A DNA stretch of 32,000 bases. Source: Candidatus Saganbacteria bacterium. Lineage in GTDB: Bacteria > Margulisbacteria > WOR-1 > JAKLHX01. The notes below the pieces were generated by a model. The model saw only the letters and a list, made by a program, of their open reading frames with translations, was not told the DNA's origin and searched no databases. Positions 7,719 through 16,219 of the stretch are shown piece by piece (positions within the stretch are counted from its first letter, which is position 1; each line of letters begins with the position of its first letter). The stretch spans positions 243,071-275,070 of the forward strand of contig JAPLKZ010000005.1 in NCBI GenBank assembly GCA_026387835.1, written 5' to 3'. The translations under genes were made by a program, and so were the position numbers.

Positions 7719-7772
7719 GGTAAGCGGAGGAGTGGCCCCCGATAGGGAATCGGGGCAGGCGAGTGGTTTAAT

Positions 7773-7860
7773 GGAGGGATGGCCGAGTGGTTGATGGCGG
7801 CGGTCTCGAAAACCGTTTCCCGATCTAATCGGGACGCAGGTTCGAATCCTGCTCCCTCCG
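7773..7860 (+). tRNA. tRNA-Ser(CGA)
   Basis: The manually folded cloverleaf has acceptor GGAGGGA/TCCCTCC, anticodon loop CT-CGA-AA, a long class II variable arm, T-loop GGTTCGAATCC and discriminator G. No CCA is encoded. Confidence 0.9.
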
Positions 7861-7881
7861 ATTTTTTATGGGAGGTCATTT

Positions 7882-8364
7882 ATGAAAGTATTGGTAGCCT
7901 ATTATTCGAGGGATGGTGCGACAAGGAAAGCGGCGGAAAGCATCGCGGGCATATTGAAATGCGATATCGAGGAGATAATCGACACCAGGAACAGGAAGGG
8001 CCTGTGGGGTTTCATGACCGGCGGTTTTGACGCGCAGTTCAAAAAACTGACAGTCATACAAGAGATGAAAAAAGATGCTTCGGCTTATGACCTGGTCGTG
8101 ATCGGGACACCTATATGGTCTTCGAAAATGGTCCCGGCAATAAGGACGTATATCATCCAGAACGTAAAAAAAATGAAAAACATAGCAATATTCTGCTGCT
8201 TCGGAGGATACGGAGATAAAAAAACTTTCAATGATATAGAAACACTGTGCGAGAAACGCGCGGCGTCAAAAGCATCGTTCAAGAGAAATGAAGTGAAGAC
8301 CGGCGAGTTCATCCAGAAGGCAAAAGAATTTGCGGGCGAGATACAGAACAGGGAGGCGATCTAA
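7882..8364 (+). CDS. flavodoxin-like protein
   Basis: The N-terminus MKVLVAYYSRDGATRKAAE matches the flavodoxin FMN-binding loop pattern. Later come DLVVIGTPIW and the size expected of a flavodoxin-like fold (160 aa). Confidence 0.85.
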   Translation: MKVLVAYYSRDGATRKAAESIAGILKCDIEEIIDTRNRKGLWGFMTGGFDAQFKKLTVIQEMKKDASAYDLVVIGTPIWSSKMVPAIRTYIIQNVKKMKNIAIFCCFGGYGDKKTFNDIETLCEKRAASKASFKRNEVKTGEFIQKAKEFAGEIQNREAI

Positions 8365-8535
8365 ATGAACAAGTTCACGATGATGAAGGCCGGCGGTCTT
8401 TTAACACTGGTATTGCTCGCATGCACGGCAATTATAGGATATCTCCATCTTGGAATTAAGCTGCATGTGATCTTTGCTATGCTGACACTGGTAGCTGCTT
8501 TATCGCACGTGTTTATTGTTATAAAGAAGGCTTGA
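8365..8535 (+). CDS. small hypothetical membrane protein (56 aa, two predicted TM helices)
   Basis: ATG 8365 lies 1 nt after the flavodoxin stop. The translation is MNKFTMMKAGGLLTLVLLACTAIIGYLHLGIKLHVIFAMLTLVAALSHVFIVIKKA. It falls below the ORF-track length cutoff and has no recognisable family. Confidence 0.4.
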   Translation: MNKFTMMKAGGLLTLVLLACTAIIGYLHLGIKLHVIFAMLTLVAALSHVFIVIKKA

Positions 8536-8603
8536 GTTTGAGTGTGAGTTTTGAGTGTTGAGTTTTTTACTCAAGACTAATTACTCAAACTTAGTACTTA
8601 AAT

Positions 8604-8690
8604 GGAGGGGTGGCCGAGTGGTTGAAGGCGCTCGCCTGGAAAGCGTGTTTACGTGAAAGCGTAACGTGGGTTCGAATCCCACCTCCTCCG
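8604..8690 (+). tRNA. tRNA-Ser(GGA)
   Basis: The cloverleaf has acceptor GGAGGGG/CTCCTCC (one G-U pair), anticodon loop CT-GGA-AA, a long variable arm, T-loop GGTTCGAATCC and discriminator G at 8690. The integrated element starts at its last three bases. Confidence 0.9.
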
Positions 8691-10127
8691 ATGATTGAGA
8701 TATTGAGCGTTTTTAAAAAGCGGCCGCCAGCCGATCCTAGAATCAAATTGTAATTTTTTGCCTTTCAAAATAAAGTTCGAGCCGATATTTTTTAGGAATG
8801 TAAGGATTTCTTCATAATTATTTGTGGCGATAAGATTTTTGGCTTGGCATCCGGATAAAATAATCTCTTTCATCGGTTCGAGCCAATTATTTCCCTTTTG
8901 TTCAAAATCCTTTATCTTTTGTTGTATGTCCAGCTTTTCGTTTAATAGGGCATTCTTTTTTACCTGATATGTTTCCGGGTCTATGCCTTCCCCCTCTATG
9001 AACAGATCAAGCAGTTTATCCATTTTTACTGCAATATCAGATTTCTTTTGTTGCAGATTTTGAACAAAAGATTTTGTTTCTGCTTGAGCAAGCTCTTTTT
9101 CGTTATTGAGGTCTATCAGCATTTTCTTCACCCAGTCATCAGGGATTATCGTTTTGCTGATAGCATCTTTCATCTGATCGATTATGGATTCCTGGCGCGT
9201 ATATTTCTCATCACACTTTTGCTTTTTCTTAGTGCAGCGATAATAGATATGGCCTTTTTGCTTTTCGGCGGTTATCATACAACCACAATTGCCGCATCGC
9301 ATCAGTCCAGAAAAAGCAAATTCATGTTTTCGTTTGCGCTTTTTCTTGCCTCTATTGGCCATTACTTGTTGAGCTTGCTCATATAGAGATTTGGAAATAA
9401 TTGGCTCGTGAGTTCCTTCGTGCATTTCTCCGTTATATCGGAATACTCCATAATAAAAAGGACTTTTTAACATGTGCTGGACACGGGCAGGAACGAGGAT
9501 ATATCCACGATAGCTTTTCATCCCGGCTCTTTCAAGGAATTGCTTTATTGAAAGCAATGTATAGTCACCGGTTGCATACAGCTCAAATGCCTTTCGTATT
9601 AGCGGAGCTTTTTCAGTATCAACTTCAATTCCTTTTGTCTTGTAATTGTTTAGATACCCCAATGGAGCAAATGCAGGCCAAATACCGTTACGCACTTTCT
9701 GCCGATGTCCTCGTTTTACATTCTCGCTTAGATTATCTATGTAATACTTGCTTTGGCCAAAGGCGATATTTAACATGAATTTTCCTTGAGGTGTAGAATC
9801 AAACCAGAAGGTCGGGAACTTGAGATCTTTCAGCCTGCCCGTGTCCAGCAAGTAAATAATTTTGCCTCCATCTATTGAATTGCGTGCTAATCTGTCCGGA
9901 TGCCAAGCCAAAACGCCACAAGCTTCACCTTTTTCAATCCGATCAAGCATTTCATTGAATATTTCTCTGCCGGGTTCTTTGGCAGTTTTTGCCTCGCAGA
10001 GCGAGGCGACGATTTCAAGTTTTTCTTTGGCGGCAAATTCTTTTAGCTCAACCAATTGTGCCTCAATGGATAATATCTGTCTTTCTTCCGAATCAGTTGA
10101 TTTCCGGGCATAAAGGAAATACTTCAT
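8649..10127 (-). CDS. large serine recombinase
   Basis: It has a resolvase-type N-terminal catalytic domain (FLYARKSTDSEERQILSIEAQ...WHPDRLARN), a recombinase domain and a zinc-ribbon (CGNCG...YYRCTKKKQKC), followed by a long helical C-terminal region. A GGAGG-rich RBS precedes ATG 10127. The last 14 codons are antisense to the tRNA-Ser(GGA) 3' half. Confidence 0.93.
   Translation of the reverse strand: MKYFLYARKSTDSEERQILSIEAQLVELKEFAAKEKLEIVASLCEAKTAKEPGREIFNEMLDRIEKGEACGVLAWHPDRLARNSIDGGKIIYLLDTGRLKDLKFPTFWFDSTPQGKFMLNIAFGQSKYYIDNLSENVKRGHRQKVRNGIWPAFAPLGYLNNYKTKGIEVDTEKAPLIRKAFELYATGDYTLLSIKQFLERAGMKSYRGYILVPARVQHMLKSPFYYGVFRYNGEMHEGTHEPIISKSLYEQAQQVMANRGKKKRKRKHEFAFSGLMRCGNCGCMITAEKQKGHIYYRCTKKKQKCDEKYTRQESIIDQMKDAISKTIIPDDWVKKMLIDLNNEKELAQAETKSFVQNLQQKKSDIAVKMDKLLDLFIEGEGIDPETYQVKKNALLNEKLDIQQKIKDFEQKGNNWLEPMKEIILSGCQAKNLIATNNYEEILTFLKNIGSNFILKGKKLQFDSRIGWRPLFKNAQYLNHRRRWDSNPRYAFT
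8688..8762. repeat. IR-A left copy (inverted repeat flanking the recombinase gene)
   Basis: The reverse complement of 10220-10287 matches this region. There are identical blocks of 14 nt and 29 nt (GTTTTTAAAAAGCGGCCGCCAGCCGATCC) plus 17 of 18 nt. They are interrupted by a 7-nt substituted patch and a 7-nt indel. Confidence 0.9.
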
Positions 10128-10157
10128 AATCCCTCCTCCTTTCAATATAGATATCGG

Positions 10158-10178
10158 TCAAAAAGCCCGCTTTTGGCC
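10158..10178. repeat. 21-nt inverted repeat P' (partner 10441-10461)
   Basis: TCAAAAAGCCCGCTTTTGGCC is the exact reverse complement of 10441-10461. It lies just upstream of the recombinase RBS, and its partner lies upstream of the XRE gene. It is hairpin-prone itself. Confidence 0.85.
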
Positions 10179-10219
10179 AGCTTCATTTGGAGTATTTATT
10201 GCTCCAAATGGAGCTGTAA

Positions 10220-10287
10220 GGCAAAAAATTCCAATTTGGATCGGCTGGCGGCCGCTTTTTAAAAACGGCGGAAATCTCAATCATCGG
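10220..10287. repeat. IR-A right copy (degenerate plus-orientation copy of the recombinase 3' end)
   Basis: See IR-A left. It is contiguous with IR-B left and shares the 4 nt TCGG (10284-10287) with it. Confidence 0.9.
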
Positions 10288-10395
10288 GAACTATATAAAA
10301 ATATCAGAACCGAGATGACCGCCGATCCTTAGGGCGGCGGTTGCCGCCGTCCAACCGCCGCCCCGTTCCCGCTGCTGGGCGACCTTTTCGGATTG
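10284..10395. repeat. IR-B left copy (112-nt inverted repeat)
   Basis: The reverse complement matches 14958-15069 at 110 of 112 positions by manual alignment. It contains a G+C-rich 12-bp stem (GGGCGGCGGTTG/CAACCGCCGCCC). Confidence 0.92.
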
Positions 10396-10440
10396 AAAAA
10401 CTGCCAAAGAACCCAAAAATATCGGCTCAAACTTTATTTT
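10396..10440 (+). pseudogene. internally deleted fragments of a second serine recombinase gene copy
   Basis: 10396-10414 is identical (19/19) to recombinase codons 47-52 (KTAKEP; reverse complement of 9972-9990). 10415-10440 matches 25 of 26 nt of codons 446-454 (KNIGSNFIL; reverse complement of 8767-8792). Both lie in the orientation opposite to the intact gene. Confidence 0.75.
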
Positions 10441-10461
10441 GGCCAAAAGCGGGCTTTTTGA
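10441..10461. repeat. 21-nt inverted repeat P (partner 10158-10178)
   Basis: GGCCAAAAGCGGGCTTTTTGA is the exact reverse complement of 10158-10178. Confidence 0.85.
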
Positions 10462-10539
10462 ATTCCGGATTGTCCCCGACCACCCACCCCTGAATAAATT
10501 GATAAATAACGCAATTATTGTTAGTATTATATTGAAAGG

Positions 10540-10560
10540 TAGCATATCAATAATATGCTA
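10540..10560. promoter_or_regulatory. palindrome upstream of the XRE gene (candidate operator)
   Basis: TAGCATA-N7-TATGCTA lies 17 nt upstream of ATG 10577. The preceding TATATTGAAAGG is shared with the region upstream of the recombinase gene. Confidence 0.35.
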
Positions 10561-10576
10561 TCAATTAAATGATATA

Positions 10577-10783
10577 ATGTCAATAAATAATAATATAGGA
10601 AAGAATATCAAACGTTTACGCACAAAATTAGGCTTCTCGCAAGAGACCTTGGCTGTAAAATCAGATGTAAAATACACGACTCTTACTAAGATTGAGAGTA
10701 ATGTTATAAAGAAACCCTCAGTATTGCTAATGGCAAAAATCGCAAATATATTAAATGTTCAAATTGAGGAGCTAATAAAATAA
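10577..10783 (+). CDS. XRE-family helix-turn-helix transcriptional regulator (68 aa)
   Basis: IGKNIKRLRTKLGFSQETLAVKSDVKYTTLTKIESNVIKKPSVLLMAKIANILNVQIEELI is a canonical HTH_3/XRE pattern. The ORF-track start at 10439 reads through the recombinase fragments and is unlikely to be real. Confidence 0.85.
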   Translation: MSINNNIGKNIKRLRTKLGFSQETLAVKSDVKYTTLTKIESNVIKKPSVLLMAKIANILNVQIEELIK

Positions 10784-10787
10784 CCAT

Positions 10788-11483
10788 ATGAAATATGAAT
10801 TGGAAATTTATAATAGAAATGTGCCTGATGAGCATCTTCTTGATGATTTAAAAGCAGTTGCTAAGAAATTAGGCAGGTCTTCTGTGACTCATGAGGAATA
10901 TAATAAAAATGGGAAGTATAATAGTACAACTTATATGCGAAGATTTGGTGGTTGGTTTAAATCGTTAGAAATGGCAGGGCTCCAAAAAACAAGAACGCCA
11001 GCTAATGTTTCCGAAGATGACTTGTTTAACAATATTGAAGAGATTTGGATAAAACTCGGCAGACAACCACGATATCAAGAAGTTAGAACCCCATTATCAA
11101 AATATTGTGCAGGAACATACGAAAACAGATTTGGAACATGGCGGAAGGCACTAGAAGCTTTCATAGATTATATTAATAAGGATCAAGATAAATGTTCAAA
11201 TGAAATATCTCAAAAAGAGATAAAATCCGGAGAGACTTCTAAATCTAATAAACACATAAAGATGACAAAAAGAGAAATATCGGATAGATTGCGTTTCCGG
11301 ATATTATTAAGAGATGGTTTTACGTGCAGAAAATGTGGCCGCAGTCCGCTGAAGAATCCAGGAATCGAATTGCATGTTGATCATATCCTTCCTTGGTCCA
11401 AAGGTGGCGAGACAACGATTGAGAATCTCGAGACGAAATGCGAAAAATGCAATCTGGGTAAAGGGAATGCATTTGATGTTTGA
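10788..11483 (+). CDS. HNH endonuclease with two N-terminal homing-endonuclease-associated repeats
   Basis: The motif Y..RFGxW..xLE.A occurs twice (YMRRFGGWFKSLEMAG and YENRFGTWRKALEAF). The C-terminal HNH motif is CRKCGR...HVDHILPWSKGGETTIENLETKCEKCN. Confidence 0.9.
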   Translation: MKYELEIYNRNVPDEHLLDDLKAVAKKLGRSSVTHEEYNKNGKYNSTTYMRRFGGWFKSLEMAGLQKTRTPANVSEDDLFNNIEEIWIKLGRQPRYQEVRTPLSKYCAGTYENRFGTWRKALEAFIDYINKDQDKCSNEISQKEIKSGETSKSNKHIKMTKREISDRLRFRILLRDGFTCRKCGRSPLKNPGIELHVDHILPWSKGGETTIENLETKCEKCNLGKGNAFDV

Positions 11484-11537
11484 TTCTTATATAGAAATGG
11501 GTAATGTCTTAGAGCAGTTAATAAGGATTGTAATAAC

Positions 11538-12449
11538 ATGGCAAATATAACATGCAAAGCGAATAATCTAAGCGGGAAAAGATGCAAAAGGAATCCTCTG
11601 AAATCTGGGTTTTGTCCAACTCATGACCCGGAAATATTAAATAAAAAAGAAGAACAGAAGAAGGCTGATGAAAAAAAGCGACAAAAAATAGATGAATTAT
11701 TATCTATTGTCACAAAAACATGTAAGGCAAATGGTTGGGGCTGGGAAGTTGATGCATTTGATGATAATGATTTTTCTTCAGCCATTGTTAATGTTCATAA
11801 ATATGTTTCAGGTCAAGACATTTCAGCATTGTTTCACATTAATATATCAAAAGACAATATTCAGTATAGGATTGAGAAAACATCATTTTACGGATACGGC
11901 GTTGAGGCATTAATGAGTTCAATATCAAGTGCATTTGAAAGAAAAGGATTTGTTAGTCCAAAATCACTAGGAGGTGAACCAAATAAAAAGAATTCCTTAT
12001 TAGATGTTTTGCCGATAATATTTGAACGATTTCATGTTGTGGCAACGCAGCTGTCAAATCGTTATAATAAGAGACCTACATTGACAATTTCTGATGAATA
12101 TGACGTACAGGATCTTTTACATGCTCTCCTTCGAGTTCATTTTACCGATGTTAGGCCAGAGGAGTATACTCCCAGTTATGCGGGATCATCTTCAAGAATA
12201 GATTTCCTTCTCAAAGATGAGAAGACGCTTCTTGAGGTTAAATATGCAACAACTTCCTTAAAGGACAAAGCGATTGGAGAACAGTTAATAATAGATGTTG
12301 AGAAGTATAAAAGACACACCGATTGTGAAAACTTGTTTTGTTTCATATATAATCCAGGTTTTTCTATTAAGAATCCAAGCGGGCTAGAAAAAGATTTGTC
12401 AGGAAAAAATGGTAATATTAATGTTAAAGTATTCGTTTACCCAAAATAA
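11538..12449 (+). CDS. hypothetical protein with Cys/His-rich N-terminus and C-terminal PD-(D/E)xK-like nuclease motif
   Basis: The C-terminal SRIDFLLKDEKTLLEVKY fits the D...(E/D)xK core of Hjc/YraN-like nucleases, preceded by an acidic PEE. The N-terminal CKANNLSGKRCKRNPLKSGFCPTH could bind metal. The family is not recognised with certainty. Confidence 0.6.
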   Translation: MANITCKANNLSGKRCKRNPLKSGFCPTHDPEILNKKEEQKKADEKKRQKIDELLSIVTKTCKANGWGWEVDAFDDNDFSSAIVNVHKYVSGQDISALFHINISKDNIQYRIEKTSFYGYGVEALMSSISSAFERKGFVSPKSLGGEPNKKNSLLDVLPIIFERFHVVATQLSNRYNKRPTLTISDEYDVQDLLHALLRVHFTDVRPEEYTPSYAGSSSRIDFLLKDEKTLLEVKYATTSLKDKAIGEQLIIDVEKYKRHTDCENLFCFIYNPGFSIKNPSGLEKDLSGKNGNINVKVFVYPK

Positions 12450-12457
12450 AATAGAAA

Positions 12458-12515
12458 CTAAAAGAATTTGCCGCCAAAGCTCTTGGCGTTTCAATAGAGG
12501 AGTTAATGAAATAGC
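12458..12515 (+). repeat. cassette junction repeat R1 (22-nt core plus XRE-tail remnant)
   Basis: 12458-12479 CTAAAAGAATTTGCCGCCAAAG is identical to the reverse complement of 10025-10046 inside the recombinase gene. The remainder reads ALGVSIEELMK-stop, resembling the tail of the XRE gene. ATG of the next gene is at 12516. Confidence 0.85.
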
Positions 12516-13346
12516 ATGAAAAATAAAACACTCGCAATTTTCGGTATAGGAACGTATATCTTATCTGTCTTGTTGTCTGCTACAGATTCGGGAGGCAATT
12601 CTGTTGCGCCAATTACATTAATCTCAATATCGGGAATAGCAACCGCGGTATTTATCATTATGGCGATAGTCCGCCTCTGGAAGGAAGAAAAAGGCGCATC
12701 AATAACACTTGCATCTTCGGCTATTATTCTTTTTATATTGTCAGTAGTTCAGGGTTTTGCCTCACCTTCGTACGGAAGTCCACTCATCATTATGTTAAAC
12801 ATAACCAAAGTATTTTATTTCATCGCATTTATTTGGACGATAATAGTACTTTATAGAAGTAAAGTAATTAATTCGCACATGATTACCAAAATAGATAATT
12901 ATCACTTAAACCAACCCGTAAATGAAGCGCCGGATTTGAAGGAATACACAGCCGAAGAATATCAAATGTTTGAGATGGCTGGATATAAAAGGATATCTGA
13001 AAATGAAAAAATCTTTAGAGGCGGAATTGTTAAATTCGCTTATATTCCGTGGGGCGAAACAACTATCGGAACTATAGATAATAAAATCTACAAAATATCG
13101 TTACAATTAATCACCCAAAACGAGATCTTAGCAAAAGAAGTGTTTAAAACCACCCTCAATTACTTAATAGAACAAATGGACAAATATAGTGAACATCCAT
13201 TTCTATCTAATAAATATATTTGGGATGCACCTGAGGGGAATATCATTTATGAGCAAATAAATAGATTTAATCAGCATTGCATAAACATTTTTATTACTTC
13301 AAGCTCTATAAGAGATCAAGTGAAGAATTATATTTCAAAACACTAG
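12516..13346 (+). CDS. hypothetical membrane protein (N-terminal multi-TM region, C-terminal soluble domain)
   Basis: The 276-aa ORF has hydrophobic helices in the first 110 aa or so and no recognisable motifs. It starts directly after R1. Confidence 0.6.
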   Translation: MKNKTLAIFGIGTYILSVLLSATDSGGNSVAPITLISISGIATAVFIIMAIVRLWKEEKGASITLASSAIILFILSVVQGFASPSYGSPLIIMLNITKVFYFIAFIWTIIVLYRSKVINSHMITKIDNYHLNQPVNEAPDLKEYTAEEYQMFEMAGYKRISENEKIFRGGIVKFAYIPWGETTIGTIDNKIYKISLQLITQNEILAKEVFKTTLNYLIEQMDKYSEHPFLSNKYIWDAPEGNIIYEQINRFNQHCINIFITSSSIRDQVKNYISKH

Positions 13347-13357
13347 GGGGAAAATAT

Positions 13358-13885
13358 ATGATTATTAAAGTTATTGTTGAAATCATTTTAGGATTTATTT
13401 TGTTGGGAGTTAGTTCTGCTTTTTGGAATTGTGTTAAATCTCCGAAATTCTTAGCGAATGTGCTGGGTGATTATGACGAATTAAAAAGGTTTTTCCATCA
13501 TCTAGGGAAAGAAAATATTAAACACGAAAGTGAAGTTGTTGATCCGAAAATTGGATTTTCGGCAAATATCGTTTTATGGATTAAAGCGAGCCTATCGGCG
13601 CTGGACAAAACACGCAACATGTTGCTGGTTGTAATAATAGGAATCTTTATCGGAAGTTATTTTCTAGGAAATATTTTCCTCTTAATCAATGCTGTTTTAT
13701 TCTTTATAATGGCTTTCCCAAGCATTTCTGCTGCTGCTAAAAATAATATAATTACTGATATTCATACGATAATGCTTAATGTCTACAAATGGAACAAAGT
13801 AAATCATGCTGAATGTGAGAGGTTTTGTAACTTAGAGCAGCCAAGGATTATGAAAAATATTTATAGAGTAGTAACTGAAGAATAA
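13358..13885 (+). CDS. hypothetical membrane protein (175 aa)
   Basis: ATG 13358 is preceded by the RBS AGGGGG. Several hydrophobic helices are present. The ORF-track start at 13277 overlaps the previous gene and is unlikely to be real. Confidence 0.55.
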   Translation: MIIKVIVEIILGFILLGVSSAFWNCVKSPKFLANVLGDYDELKRFFHHLGKENIKHESEVVDPKIGFSANIVLWIKASLSALDKTRNMLLVVIIGIFIGSYFLGNIFLLINAVLFFIMAFPSISAAAKNNIITDIHTIMLNVYKWNKVNHAECERFCNLEQPRIMKNIYRVVTEE

Positions 13886-13942
13886 AAGGATTTGCCGCCA
13901 AAGCGTAGGGCGTTTCAATTGGAGATTTAATAAAATAAATTT
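13882..13942 (+). repeat. cassette junction repeat R2 (core plus decayed XRE-tail remnant)
   Basis: ATAAAAGGATTTGCCGCCAAAG has two mismatches to the core. It is followed by a tail reading A-stop-GVSIGDLIK-stop. I align it with R1 at roughly 80% identity by eye. The TAA of the upstream gene lies inside the core. ATG of the next gene is at 13943. Confidence 0.8.
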
Positions 13943-14926
13943 ATGTCATTATTTAAGAAAAAATTAACCGAGCAAGAAGCCGCCTCTCATTTTGTCCTTT
14001 ATATTACAAAAGAGGCACAAAGTGCATGGCCTGCCATTTATAAAAGTCTTCAAGATTCTTTTAAAGATAAATTTGTTGTAGAAGACGAAACAATGGCAGC
14101 ATTTGATTTGGCTCTTGCCGCAATCGCCCAAGATTTACAGGCGGTAAATAATTTATTTCCAAAAGACCAAGCAGAAAGAATTGAAAAATGGGTTTTAAAA
14201 TGCATTAATACTGAAGATTGGGGCGAATATGCGGTTGGCGAAGTGAAAAAATATGGGGAAAGATTTCAAAAGGATATTCAAAATATCAATGCCGGTGGCG
14301 ATCCTTTGAGCGCCATCCCAACTCGCTTACTCCAGCAATGGCTAGGAAAAAATATTCAAGGCTTTGATGTAGAAATGAACGGAAAGAAAACCGGAATTAT
14401 AAGCCCCTTTCTTCTTATGATGGTTTCCAGTATGCTTGCCGCCTTTCTTGGAACTTGGAAAAAACTAAAGGATGATTTTAATCTTGTTGAGGGCGACATA
14501 CCTTTTGATGAAAAACCAAGTGGCTTGAAAGATTATGTACCCGAGCCGGATGAAAAAAAGCCTAACGGAACTATTCAATATTATGATGAAAACGGGAACC
14601 TAAAAGAGAAATGGTTGCCACCGGAACAAATAAATGAACTTTTAAAGAAAGACGGCGCAAAGCGACTTTATAAAGTACTCGTTAAGGGACATTGGGACGG
14701 TGTTAAGGAAGCCCTTTGGGAACTTTCTGATGATACTGCTCAAAAATATGTTGATGAAAATGGTTATGCTTATGCAATTTGCACTTACGACACAGGAGAA
14801 TTAAAATATTACTTTATTTCAAGAAGATTATGGGAGAAACAAGAGCAAATGGGAAAAATCTTGATGGATCAAAATTTATCACCGGAACAACAGCAAGAAG
14901 CAGTTAGAAAATTAATGGATGACTAA
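13943..14926 (+). CDS. hypothetical protein (327 aa)
   Basis: This is a long ORF with an ATG start directly after R2. It has no recognisable domain. Its TAA stop lies inside the R3 core. Confidence 0.6.
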   Translation: MSLFKKKLTEQEAASHFVLYITKEAQSAWPAIYKSLQDSFKDKFVVEDETMAAFDLALAAIAQDLQAVNNLFPKDQAERIEKWVLKCINTEDWGEYAVGEVKKYGERFQKDIQNINAGGDPLSAIPTRLLQQWLGKNIQGFDVEMNGKKTGIISPFLLMMVSSMLAAFLGTWKKLKDDFNLVEGDIPFDEKPSGLKDYVPEPDEKKPNGTIQYYDENGNLKEKWLPPEQINELLKKDGAKRLYKVLVKGHWDGVKEALWELSDDTAQKYVDENGYAYAICTYDTGELKYYFISRRLWEKQEQMGKILMDQNLSPEQQQEAVRKLMDD

Positions 14927-14957
14927 AATTTCCGCCAAAGAAAAACTTGAAATCGTC
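14923..14957 (+). repeat. junction repeat R3 (fragment of recombinase codons 28-40, plus orientation)
   Basis: CTAAAATTTCCGCCAAAGAAAAACTTGAAATCGTC matches the reverse complement of 10008-10046 apart from two small deletions (4 nt in total). It abuts IR-B right. Confidence 0.8.
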
Positions 14958-15069
14958 CAATCCGAAAAGGTCGCCCAGCAGCGGGAACGGGGCGGCGGTT
15001 GGATGGCGGCAACCGCCGCCCTAAGGATCGGCGGTCAGCTCGGTTCTGATATTTTTATATAGTTCCCGA
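14958..15069. repeat. IR-B right copy (112-nt inverted repeat; right terminus of the element)
   Basis: It matches the reverse complement of 10284-10395 at 110 of 112 positions and ends in CCGA at 15066-15069. Confidence 0.92.
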
Positions 15070-15070
15070 A

Positions 15071-16219
15071 TTATTTCTTCCGCAGCACCCACATCATCTC
15101 TTTCACTCTTATATTCCTGTTCCTAAGGTTCCTTGACCCTCGGTAAGTATTATATTCGCTTGACATAAGCTTCCATTTTCCGTGTTTGGACAGGATGGAC
15201 TTGAAAGTCTTAACGGGGATTATCCCTTCATCATTGTAAGAGATAACGATGAATTTAGCTCTGGTGTTTTTCAGAAGTTGGTCCATTGCCTCTTCGGCAA
15301 GATGCCTTTTGTTATAAACGGACTTGTTCCAATCCCGCGTGATCCCGCTGACGCCGTCCTGGATATAAAAGTTTTTATAGTCATTTATAAGGTTCAGCAT
15401 GAAATAGTTTGACCCGTAAGGATGCTGGTTATAGGGCGGGTCAAGATAGACAAGATCGAACTCCGGAAGATTTGTGTCTTTAACAAGCCGATTAATATCT
15501 TTTTTTAGTACAACGACCTTACACTCGATATCAGAGAATACCGGCACTTCAAGGGTTATTTCCTTTTTTATCCTTGAGAGGGCATTCTCGCCTTTGCCTC
15601 CGAAATGGCCGATGCCGTTCTTCTTGTGGAACCCTTTGAAGACGCCGGAAGTGTTCGTGTGTATAGATGCTTCCACCAGAAGCGATGCAAGACAGAAGAC
15701 GCGGTATTTTTCGGGAACGTCTTTGTCGATGAGTTTCCTAATATTATCGATGACCTGAGCGTTCTTGCTCGTATAAAAAACCCGCTCTCCGGATTTAATA
15801 TCCATATCATCCTTTGGCGAATAATTGAGGCTGATGAAACCTGGCTTATTTATGGATAATTTACGATCATTTAGAATGTCTATGTAATATTCAAGCTTTT
15901 TAACATTTATCTCTGATCTGTTTGCAAGATAACATCTGTTTAGCGTAAAACTGTAATTCTCAAGGTCATTGGCATACAGGACCTTTGCGTAATATTTCAA
16001 AAGCCTCGAAACTGAGCCGCTTCCCGCGAAACCGTCAAGGATAACAAGTTTTTCTTTGTTAAGTATTTTCTTAACTTTAGCAAACCCCTTATTAAGAAAG
16101 GAAAGGAGCGACCTTTTATTGCCGAGATAAGTTATCAGCTGAGAAGAAAAATATGGGGCATCTAAGTCAAGGTATTCCGGGGCATTGCCGGAAAATAAAG
16201 ATCGTTGTATGTGTGCCAT
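15071..16219 (-). CDS. N6-adenine DNA methyltransferase, alpha group (D12/Dam-like class)
   Basis: It has a YLGNKR-type N-terminal motif, motif I DGFAGSGS, a long intervening region, then motif IV DPPY (VYLDPPYN). It is 382 aa. Its stop codon lies 1 nt from the right end of the element. Confidence 0.9.
   Translation of the reverse strand: MAHIQRSLFSGNAPEYLDLDAPYFSSQLITYLGNKRSLLSFLNKGFAKVKKILNKEKLVILDGFAGSGSVSRLLKYYAKVLYANDLENYSFTLNRCYLANRSEINVKKLEYYIDILNDRKLSINKPGFISLNYSPKDDMDIKSGERVFYTSKNAQVIDNIRKLIDKDVPEKYRVFCLASLLVEASIHTNTSGVFKGFHKKNGIGHFGGKGENALSRIKKEITLEVPVFSDIECKVVVLKKDINRLVKDTNLPEFDLVYLDPPYNQHPYGSNYFMLNLINDYKNFYIQDGVSGITRDWNKSVYNKRHLAEEAMDQLLKNTRAKFIVISYNDEGIIPVKTFKSILSKHGKWKLMSSEYNTYRGSRNLRNRNIRVKEMMWVLRKK

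Follow-up and report, generated by a model that had tools for sequence, protein, structure and literature searches.

Positions 8688–15069 of the window, the 32,000-nt stretch of Candidatus Saganbacteria DNA analyzed in this study, are read as an integrated element driven by a large serine recombinase (LSR). This reading takes the family layout and the mechanism proposed below together and is held with moderate confidence. The element appears to carry inside itself a complete inverted copy of its predicted attP. About 165 related loci were compared, and they constitute a widespread family of small LSR integrative elements (about 2.5–10 kb) without description in the searched literature. The original prediction that the layout is unfamiliar among described LSR elements was thus consistent with the literature searches, which found neither the family nor the layout.

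Structure of the element

The LSR gene segment between inverted copies of a is named G, and the cargo segment between inverted copies of b is named C. J2 is the internal site a/b-bar, T is the tRNA, and F is the tRNA-distal flank. The features were as follows.

8603–8691, plus strand: tRNA-Ser(GGA) (ARAGORN; Rfam tRNA match of 57.6 bits at 8604–8690)
8649–10127, minus strand: LSR gene, 492 aa (Pfam Resolvase, Recombinase, Zn_ribbon_recom)
8688–8691: left crossover core CCGA (attL), identical to 15066–15069 and complementary to 10284–10287 (sequence)
8688–8767: outer IR-A copy (a-bar), minus strand coding for the recombinase C-terminal tail (repeats I2, I6 and alignment)
8766–8792 and 10415–10441: x-bar and x (repeat I4, 27 nt at 96%)
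9972–9990 and 10396–10414: v (repeat finder)
9972–10046, minus strand: v, 17-nt palindrome and z inside the recombinase gene, codons ~28–52 (repeats I3, I7, I9)
10008–10039 and 14926–14957: z (repeat I3, 32 nt at 94%)
10158–10179 and 10440–10461: y-bar and y (repeat I8, 22 nt at 100%)
10215–10395: J2 (a 10215–10287, TCGG core 10284–10287, b-bar 10284–10395)
10396–10461, plus strand: cargo module, inner left end, with v, x and y (recombinase-derived pieces)
10499–10583: divergent promoter-like sites around the palindrome TAGCATATCAATAATATGCTA (10540–10560) (consensus scan and sequence)
10577–10783, plus strand: XRE-type HTH gene, first in the cargo (Pfam HTH_3, E = 1.6e-13)
10788–11483, plus strand: HNH endonuclease with HNH repeats (Pfam, PADLOC)
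11538–12449, plus strand: DpnII/MboI-type nuclease-domain protein (Pfam, PADLOC)
12458–12513, plus strand: hybrid remnant, 5' part of z fused to the HTH gene 3' end (D1, D2, I7, I9)
12516–13346, 13358–13885 and 13943–14926, plus strand: three cargo ORFs
13883–13937: second copy of the z/HTH hybrid remnant (comparison with the HTH 3' ends of L105 and L081)
14926–14957, plus strand: copy of z adjoining the outer IR-B (repeat I3)
14958–15069: outer IR-B copy (b), P-type half-site with GGTTCTGA 23 nt from the junction (repeat I1)
15066–15069: right crossover core CCGA (attR), within the outer IR-B
15070–16219, minus strand: attB right flank, D12-class N6-adenine DNA methyltransferase gene (ORF 15071–16219)

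The island (6.4 kb) was placed between the 3' end of tRNA-Ser(GGA), which forms the left, specific half of attB, and the methyltransferase stop codon (15071–15073), one base past the right core. From the spans of the tRNA, the crossover core includes the discriminator and the last acceptor bases. The G+C content was 47–50% outside and 32–40% within these boundaries. The repeats, the core sequences and the G+C shift supported the proposed limits at the CCGA cores, and excision at these limits would leave an intact tRNA adjoining the methyltransferase gene, as predicted.

The recombinase had been assigned to the large serine recombinases, and the Pfam domains and the invariance of R8, S10 and four Cys in the family alignment supported this. 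It distantly matched the A118 integrase. The reading frame crosses attL into the antisense tRNA and ends in HRRRWDSNPRYAFT before the stop.

The IR-B arms (10284–10395 and 14958–15069) were 112 nt long and 98% complementary by the repeat finder, as predicted; a repeat of this length and identity cannot have arisen by chance. IR-A was a real repeat, weaker than the original prediction implied: its arms were 50 nt at 90% (8688–8737 and 10238–10287) and 24 nt at 92% (8744–8767 and 10215–10238) by the repeat finder, and the alignment gave about 80 nt in all, interrupted by a 7-nt indel and five clustered mismatches. Put together at CCGA/TCGG, the two element ends made up the internal block in inverted orientation. 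The internal copies were contiguous and overlapped by TCGG (10284–10287), with CCGA at both termini, and J2 was a full inverted copy of b/a-bar, the junction expected on excision. On all these points, including a predicted circle junction that would duplicate the internal block in inverted form, the prediction was supported.

The short repeats z, x, y and v had been missed earlier. The x-bar copy codes for IGSNF, contains the T-loop-like AAAGTTCGAGCC, and is kept in relatives. The y-bar copy lies directly upstream of the recombinase start codon and is conserved in the upstream alignment. Inside the recombinase gene, v, the 17-nt palindrome and z each have a copy in the cargo module, and synonymous-site conservation was raised across 9972–10046. 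The position of z next to the outer b was the same in at least 10 relatives and in the Logan contig L184, and the position of x and similar details varied among subfamilies.

The region 10499–10583 is a weak candidate for the control region of both the plus-strand HTH/cargo operon and the minus-strand recombinase, with promoters assigned by consensus matches only. The sole promoter-like site found for the recombinase by the consensus scan sits in the cargo segment. In 23 of 54 loci, the cargo began with an HTH gene. The three cargo ORFs had no family match in Pfam or PADLOC. The z/HTH hybrid remnants may mark seams between accreted modules, and the window cargo looks as if accreted from three of them. 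No replication gene, including rolling-circle or ssDNA types, was found in the window or among 109 surveyed cargo proteins. Family cargo was variable and often comprised restriction-modification or defence genes.

Site geometry and conservation in the family

The LSR 3' end lay antisense to the tRNA, adjoining the tRNA 3' end, in 118 of the about 165 loci, an IR-A pair flanked the LSR gene in 120, and an IR-B pair with its far copy at the distal cargo end was present in 54. In these 54 loci, the A and B copies were contiguous in J2 and overlapped by 3–11 bp, equal to the tRNA end. The repeats were 45–330 bp long, and J2 and the outer copies showed 170–460 bp of perfect identity in relatives. 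The hosts came from many phyla: Patescibacteria, Margulisbacteria, Omnitrophota, Ignavibacteriota, Marinimicrobia and others, many of them uncultivated.

An assembly chimera would account for the inverted repeats only with negligible probability. The repeats exceed the k-mer size, and many relatives' contigs break inside J2; however, more than 50 independent assemblies share the layout, megabase contigs included (0.77 and 1.8 Mb for L014 and L030), and Logan assemblies of 13 sequencing runs independently reproduced both outer junctions of the window element.

The modal distance from GTTCGRA to the junction was 23 nt in b (69/92) and 18 nt in the tRNA (59/76). The motif in b is T-loop-like, and the real T-loop in the tRNA lies 5 nt nearer the crossover. 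The attP and attB sites of LSRs follow a 5-bp offset rule (PMC11722253), so the spacing points to true attP geometry in J2. The b-profile search matched 93 J2 and 51 far-b sites and zero true tRNAs. The core of b covaried with the target tRNA end, and F showed no conservation. The recognizable recombinase motif was confined to the B half, and no clear dyad partner of GTTCGRA was found in the a-bar half. The attP would be b/a-bar, and attB would be specified essentially by the tRNA half.

The internal copy might instead be a relic without function, left by a past inverted duplication of the attP region and homogenized by gene conversion. Identity reaching far past any plausible binding site, the subfamily differences in the position of x and other details, and the persistence of J2-less derivatives (L081 and L007 types) fit this explanation. 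It is considered improbable: J2 with exact motif spacing was kept where the recombinases are only ~50% identical, and the J2-less derivatives have damaged recombinase genes. Moreover, an inverted repeat of such length carries a cost and tends to rearrange, which makes it unlikely that more than 50 lineages would have kept it neutrally.

Rearranged relatives and the probable unity of the element

About 66 informative loci had the standard orientation, against one intact flipped locus and five lineages of flipped-form deletion derivatives. The flipped-form loci included L105; L007, L018, L025 and L106, in which LSR codon 29 is fused to the cargo at z; and L081–85, where P0038 is an LSR::HTH fusion and b follows 4.1 kb downstream. 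Tandem arrays with b1/a2 junctions were found in L022, L113, L014 and L156. In L048, the LSR segment stands alone, without b, between two different convergent tRNA-Ser genes, and its repeats are only 78% identical. These relatives indicate that recombination does take place at the internal site and the repeats. The intact isomers L105, L135 and L134 are possibly mis-phased because a plus b is longer than short reads. A canonical LSR does not use attL, attR or a second attP as the partner of attP. By these rules, LSR-driven inversion is unexpected, and host homologous recombination may be responsible instead.

The original prediction had offered a TIR-like unit nested in an older element as an alternative. 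A related reading is two neighbouring mobile units with J2 as their seam: G, an autonomous recombinase transposon, would have perfect terminal inverted repeats and the circle joint a/a-bar, and C, a non-autonomous cargo element, inverted repeats of its own and the joint b/b-bar. Each segment does have its own inverted repeats, G occurs alone between two tRNAs in L048, a foreign b adjoins G in L156 and L014, and the window cargo is seemingly an accretion of three modules. Inverted sites, however, are unable to excise the segment between them, G was always beside the tRNA and C always distal, and the b profile found no C-only insertion beside a tRNA. The motif at attP spacing is in b and not in the a half, and the sole promoter-like site for the recombinase is within C, so the two segments look like one unit. 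The two-unit reading is therefore considered unlikely, and the nested unit was partly supported, by the repeats and L048.

The similarity to the yeast 2-micron FLP/FRT system, also raised earlier, concerns a circle split into two unique segments by two inverted sites, here a recombinase half and a cargo half. In a corresponding flip system, recombinase inversion of a replicating circle would produce isomers and amplify the copy number. Flipped-configuration derivatives were found, and another LSR has been observed to form an attP-attP tetramer (PMC11722253). This explanation is nevertheless very unlikely. FLP is a tyrosine recombinase, and its plasmid replicates autonomously, exists as equimolar isomers and undergoes amplification; none of this was found here: the enzyme is a serine recombinase, a replication gene was lacking, integration was tRNA-adjacent in most loci, and one orientation dominated. 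Neither the circular junction nor the empty site of the window element, both sought as proposed, was seen in the Logan assemblies of the 13 runs. One relative, L004, looked circular; its J2 contains an N-gap, and the circularity may be an artefact of the graph. The two-inverted-site architecture therefore held, the flip-and-amplify part did not, and the likeness is purely architectural.

Pairing of the inverted copies in a single-stranded circle to give a double-stranded attP, as in CTX phage, is highly improbable. The mechanism requires two inverted site copies, and perfect complementarity of 170–460 nt would give a very stable stem. The copies are, however, at least 1.5 kb apart, no gene for such replication was found, and the family is almost absent from viral contigs. 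Serine recombinases cleave both strands of both partners, and by this mechanism cleavage of a folded single strand would leave hairpin-capped chromosome ends.

In the integrated-element reading preferred here, the circle would integrate via the copy at which the recombinase gene and the cargo operon meet tail-to-tail, so both transcription units would stay intact. The second copy would remain a competent attP within the head-to-head control region, as L048 and the tandem arrays suggest, and its recombination with another tRNA could cause segment loss. Exchange across the inverted repeats would occasionally flip C relative to G, and the flipped form would decay by deletion between short repeats that are now direct.

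Comparison with known systems and possible role of J2

The element resembles the large serine integrases (A118/LI, SPbeta, Bxb1, phiC31) in its catalytic, recombinase and zinc-ribbon domains with a coiled-coil insert, its short crossover core without long direct repeats, and an outer DNA motif 5 bp nearer the center in attB than in attP. It differs in that identity to any phage integrase is below 30% and viral contigs almost lack the family, attB sites are tRNA gene 3' ends with apparently one-sided specification, the gene extends across attP, the element retains internally a second attP copy in inverted orientation, and no RDF candidate was identified.

Tn4451/Tn4453 (TnpX) and Tn5397 (TndX) are LSR transposons with loose joint-like targets and without long inverted repeats. 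They share the LSR-driven circular intermediate, the dinucleotide-level core and the coupling of the circle joint to recombinase expression; unlike the present family, they have no tRNA-end targeting and no internal joint copy. Islands of tyrosine integrases likewise insert at tRNA 3' ends, carry a tRNA-end mimic and form tandem arrays at one tRNA, but their enzyme is of the tyrosine type and their insertion leaves the 3' part of the tRNA directly repeated. In the present family, the mimic (b) is distal, shifted in motif spacing and duplicated in inverted orientation. Hin/Gin segments, such as the H segment with hin, also hold the recombinase gene between inverted crossover sites. Their enzymes are small invertases that act on 26-bp sites with a Fis enhancer, and either orientation is common, whereas the present LSR elements are integrative, with 45–330 bp repeats and one dominant orientation.

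In Tn3/gamma-delta, the res site lies between divergent tnpA and tnpR. The likeness is a serine-recombinase site in a head-to-head control region between the recombinase gene and another operon; the differences are that small resolvases act there on directly repeated res sites in cointegrates, and that here the site is an inverted copy of the integration site with putative regulation. Autoregulation needs no perfect identity of 170–460 bp, and the window IR-A pair has already decayed to ~90%; speculatively, gene conversion may hold the two site copies identical. Because of the comparable position of res, the best guess is that J2 is kept as a recombinase-binding site in the leader/control region of the recombinase gene, where binding would give res-like autoregulation and activity as a second attP would be a side effect.

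Repeats, boundaries and recombinase of the element

The repeat search was run on window positions 8000–16000. The IR-B pair (10284–10395 and 14958–15069), which bounds the cargo segment C, was 112 nt long and 98% complementary. The IR-A pair, which bounds segment G with the gene for the large serine recombinase (LSR), joined 8688–8737 to 10238–10287 over 50 nt at 90% and, in the alignment, resumed at 8744–8767 and 10215–10238 beyond a 7-nt indel. The inner copies, a and b-bar, were contiguous and had TCGG (10284–10287) in common, and CCGA terminated both outer copies, a-bar and b. Repeat search, sequence and alignment therefore confirmed the original prediction of two inverted repeat pairs meeting at a CCGA/TCGG core; the inverted pairing of IR-A was real, but this pair was more decayed than had been implied.

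The left core lay within the final bases of tRNA-Ser(GGA), and the right core was one base short of the methyltransferase stop codon, on the opposite strand. G+C was 32–40% between the cores versus 47–50% outside. The same core was found in attL (the tRNA half T joined to a-bar), attR (b joined to the tRNA-distal flank F) and the internal site J2 (a joined to b-bar), and exchange at this short core relates attL, attR and attP to one another. A tRNA-Ser(CGA) gene at 7772–7861, 750 bp upstream and in the same orientation, was unoccupied; relatives of the recombinase use tRNA-Ser(CGA) elsewhere. The orphan-looking D12-class N6-adenine methyltransferase at 15071–16219 (PADLOC MTase_II, E = 6.5e-111) lay just outside the island and had an intermediate G+C of 42%. 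No partner nuclease was visible for it outside the island, and two nuclease-domain genes lay inside. The genes of the element, which comes from a Candidatus Saganbacteria MAG, were as follows.

10127–8649, minus strand: LSR gene, 492 aa, with Resolvase, Recombinase and Zn_ribbon_recom domains (Pfam)
Cargo, plus strand: XRE-type HTH protein
Cargo, plus strand: HNH endonuclease
Cargo, plus strand: protein with a DpnII/MboI-type nuclease domain
Cargo, plus strand: three ORFs without a family match

The recombinase had an N-terminal resolvase-type catalytic domain (PF00239, E = 2e-19), a recombinase domain (PF07508, E = 6e-17) and a zinc beta-ribbon (PF13408, E = 1e-9). R8, K9 and S10, the serine nucleophile, were invariant among 28 aligned homologues, and C278, C281, C298 and C305 were invariant in the homologue alignment. 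Homologues with 50–75% identity occurred in many phyla. Identity to any phage integrase was below 30%, with only a distant match to the C-terminal region of A118 integrase. The scan of viral contigs for the recombinase family gave only four weak matches, so the family is not phage-borne; an exact-protein look-up of the window recombinase returned no matching record. The reading frame ran over attL and ended in ...WDSNPR..., the translated antisense T-arm, and many homologues likewise ended in ...NWRRGRDSNPR.

Other serine recombinase systems were considered and rejected. Hin and Gin invertases are small enzymes that carry an HTH at the C terminus and act at short hix/gix sites, whereas the window enzyme is a 492-aa LSR and the repeats are 45–330 bp. 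Serine transposons of the IS607 or TnpX type use many loose targets and have ends without long inverted repeats, in contrast to the long inverted repeats and tRNA 3' end targets (118 of 166 loci) of this family.

Layout and cargo among related loci

Related loci were fetched from genomes (80), from metagenomes (80) and for one variant protein (5), and each was analyzed by self-BLAST and ARAGORN. An antisense tRNA gene directly 3' of the LSR gene was found in 118 of 166 loci, and the target tRNAs were Ser (at least four anticodons), Gln, Ala, Trp, Glu, Val, Leu, Arg, Tyr, His, Asp and Asn. The IR-A pair was present in 120 loci, between the 3' end of the LSR gene and a copy 50–150 nt upstream of its start codon; the median length was 90 nt, and 56 pairs were 100% identical. 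The IR-B pair was present in 54 loci, between the block adjoining the upstream A copy and a copy 0.6–8 kb further away, with lengths of 44–330 nt and at least 98% identity in 40. The copies within J2 overlapped by 3–11 bp, this overlap (CCGCCA, for example) being the very end of the tRNA, and the attL/attR/attP relation held in 54 loci. Most loci without a B pair merely lacked upstream sequence, and 31 contigs ended less than 180 nt past the A copy.

The same layout with perfect repeats was found in contigs of 0.77 and 1.8 Mb (L014 and L030), which we infer from size and names to be long-read assemblies, and both an assembly chimera and a one-off arrangement were thereby ruled out. Repeat identities ranged from 78 to 100% across loci, a range that fits copies identical in the active element and decaying once inserted. 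Their identity is most simply explained by gene conversion of one copy by the other.

DNA methylases, restriction enzymes and SMODS, along with assorted genes, made up most of the cargo of relatives (109 proteins). Neither these proteins nor the window cargo included a replication family. Domain and PADLOC searches of the window proteins recognized no candidate directionality factor (RDF), and tRNAs were the sole Rfam matches, with no RNA family in the repeats.

The cargo module also carried short copies of LSR sequence, with v, x and y beside b-bar and z beside the far b. In another subfamily, x belongs to a longer IR-A, and J2 is there a plain inverted duplicate of b joined to a-bar and x-bar; by comparison, the placement seen in the subfamily of the window looks secondary. 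A single simple rearrangement failed to explain the short repeats x, v, y and z, whose placement differs among subfamilies. Two 55-nt direct repeats between cargo genes (12458–12513 and 13883–13937) combined the 5' part of z (LKEFAAK) with the 3' end of an XRE HTH gene (ALGVSIEELMK*). These hybrids suggest that the window cargo consists of three modules fused by deletions.

Synonymous-site conservation, normalized for codon degeneracy, was elevated not only at z, v and x but in other regions as well, and is not decisive. Codons 319–333, 241–255, 205–216 and 349–363 (window about 9128–9170, 9362–9406, 9479–9514 and 9038–9082) reached 1.5–2.2 times the gene average among 126 homologues, as high as or higher than the repeat segments, and no repeat partner was found for them. 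A 26-nt inverted repeat lay within the recombinase gene (8837–8862 and 9888–9913; codons about 72–80, AWHPD, and about 422–430), and several relatives had a comparable one (for example gene positions 723–748 and 965–992). In a Kiritimatiellia relative (L026, 261–479 and 3927–5123), the recombinase gene was split by a 3.4-kb insertion after about codon 72. Three independent Logan contigs (L170, L173 and L174) all ended at about window position 10002, within the 17-nt palindrome that separates v from z in the recombinase gene.

Free forms, inversion isomers and recombination products

The predicted empty site of the window element is ...CCTCCTCCGA joined to ATTATTTCTTCC, and the predicted circle junction is ...TATAGTTCCCGA joined to TGATTGAGATATTGAG. 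Neither was seen in searches with the flanking proteins and with Logan contigs from 13 runs. One flanking protein, the flavodoxin neighbor, had no close relative (best 59%). The contigs from these independent Logan assemblies of the host population showed the integrated standard form only. A check for circular contigs among relatives found a terminal overlap in L004 only, with an N-gap in J2.

About 66 informative loci had the standard orientation versus one intact flipped locus, and the flipped form was otherwise present only as deletion derivatives. The two inversion isomers were thus not both abundant, as they are for a 2-micron-type plasmid. A flip and amplification cycle like that of the yeast 2-micron plasmid, to which the original prediction likened a circle with two inverted sites, was not supported, given this orientation bias, the lack of a replication gene, the near absence from viral contigs and the purely integrated form in the 13 runs. 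Moreover, FLP of 2-micron is a tyrosine recombinase, whereas the window enzyme is a serine recombinase. A CTX-like single-strand folded attP and hairpin-telomere schemes were rejected on mechanism and for lack of replication genes.

Traces of recombination at J2 and the repeats were found in several loci. In L048, the LSR segment lay between two different convergent tRNA-Ser genes, each with its CCA end joined to an a copy, and b was absent. Its a copies were only 78% identical to each other, so this is not a phasing error, and its simplest reading is recombination of attP (J2) with a second attB, with the cargo deleted. Tandem arrays with the far b of one element adjoining a of another were found in L022, L113, L014 and L156. 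Derivatives of a configuration with G and C co-directional existed, and L105 was intact. The cargo was joined at z to LSR codon 29 in L007, L018, L025 and L106, with the first 28 codons and J2 lost. An LSR::HTH fusion in L081–85 was joined at x, with a tRNA gene upstream in the same direction and b 4.1 kb downstream. Such deletions would be the expected product of x and z once inversion made them direct repeats.

The combined length of a and b exceeds that of short reads, so the intact isomers L105, L135 and L134 and the circular-looking L004 may be mis-phased; the deletion derivatives and L048 cannot be. At its two ends, the contig of L134 (1–11566) carried perfect inverted copies of the recombinase segment, 2,071 bp each, around 7.4 kb, and both junctions were of the circle type (x a joined to b-bar). 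This palindrome probably arose as the assembler walked through the repeats, or as a repeat-phasing artefact, and could also reflect mixed isomers. A second, different tRNA-Ser(GCT) was found on the LSR::HTH fusion contig L081 (10887–12690), beside a degraded recombinase unit in standard orientation with IR-A copies of 147 nt, perfect.

Attachment-site geometry and the predicted internal inverted attP

A T-loop-like GTTCGRA motif in b most often started 23 nt from the A arm (mode, 69 of 92 loci), and the real T-loop in the tRNA most often started 18 nt away (mode, 59 of 76 loci). For LSRs, the motif of the second DNA-binding (zinc-ribbon) domain is 5 bp nearer the center in attB than in attP (PMC11722253). 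The spacings of 18 and 23 nt matched this rule, for the left halves only. A search with a profile built on b matched 93 J2 copies and 51 far copies and no true tRNAs, and the final bases of b co-varied with the target tRNA's 3' end. Dyad-symmetric half-sites were sought in attP and attB and not found: flank F showed no conservation, and a-bar had no clear inverted GTTCGRA.

The att sites thus look one-sided. From the sequences, attP would be b joined to a-bar, and attB would be set by the tRNA half alone; J2, the inverted copy of that junction, would then be a complete attP kept in inverted orientation. That the whole system is one-sided, with the universal T-loop and acceptor end of tRNAs as the sole specific half of attB and the shifted mimic b as the sole specific half of attP, is a reading we consider rather unlikely. 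If only left halves mattered, attL would remain attB-like, and attR and J2 would remain attP-like. A single reaction would then account for integration and excision as well as for segment inversion and tandem capture, and a directionality factor would not be needed. Through its conserved internal inverted attP, each island would be a two-segment device, complete in itself, that the recombinase could flip.

J2 sits where the LSR gene and the HTH/cargo operon are arranged head-to-head, and the integrating copy would sit where they meet tail-to-tail. The position of J2 resembles that of the res site between tnpA and tnpR in Tn3-type transposons. In a consensus scan, the sole promoter-like site on the LSR strand was beyond J2, so that J2, if this site is real, would be transcribed as the leader of the LSR gene. 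Autoregulation through recombinase binding at J2 is a guess by analogy. Beside this promoter-like site lay the perfect palindrome TAGCATATCAATAATATGCTA (10540–10560), which promoter-like sites of the two strands overlap and which probably serves the adjacent HTH protein as an operator. Relatives had similar AT-rich palindromes at the corresponding place.

The window element has the enzyme of an LSR system and its attL/attR/attP logic. The original prediction did not recognize its layout among described LSR elements, and a literature search likewise found neither a described LSR element with an internal inverted attP nor an LSR family reading the tRNA T-loop. The element is a widespread LSR integrative element with a conserved architectural feature, the internal inverted attP, which is outside the textbook integrase life cycle. 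Whether this feature serves autoregulation, acts as a second attP or works as a flip device bears on the strictness of the rule that attP recombines with attB only. Serine integrases are prized in genome engineering for their short sites and one-way reaction. A large natural clade that recognizes conserved tRNA 3' ends by a T-loop motif (in tRNAs for Ser, Gln, Ala, Trp, Val, Leu and others) would give recombinases with near-universal genomic landing sites, and in this motif the spacing rule for attP and attB can be read straight from natural sequence. Among Patescibacteria and further uncultivated lineages, in which mobile elements are little known, the family seems to be a common carrier of defence and restriction-modification genes.
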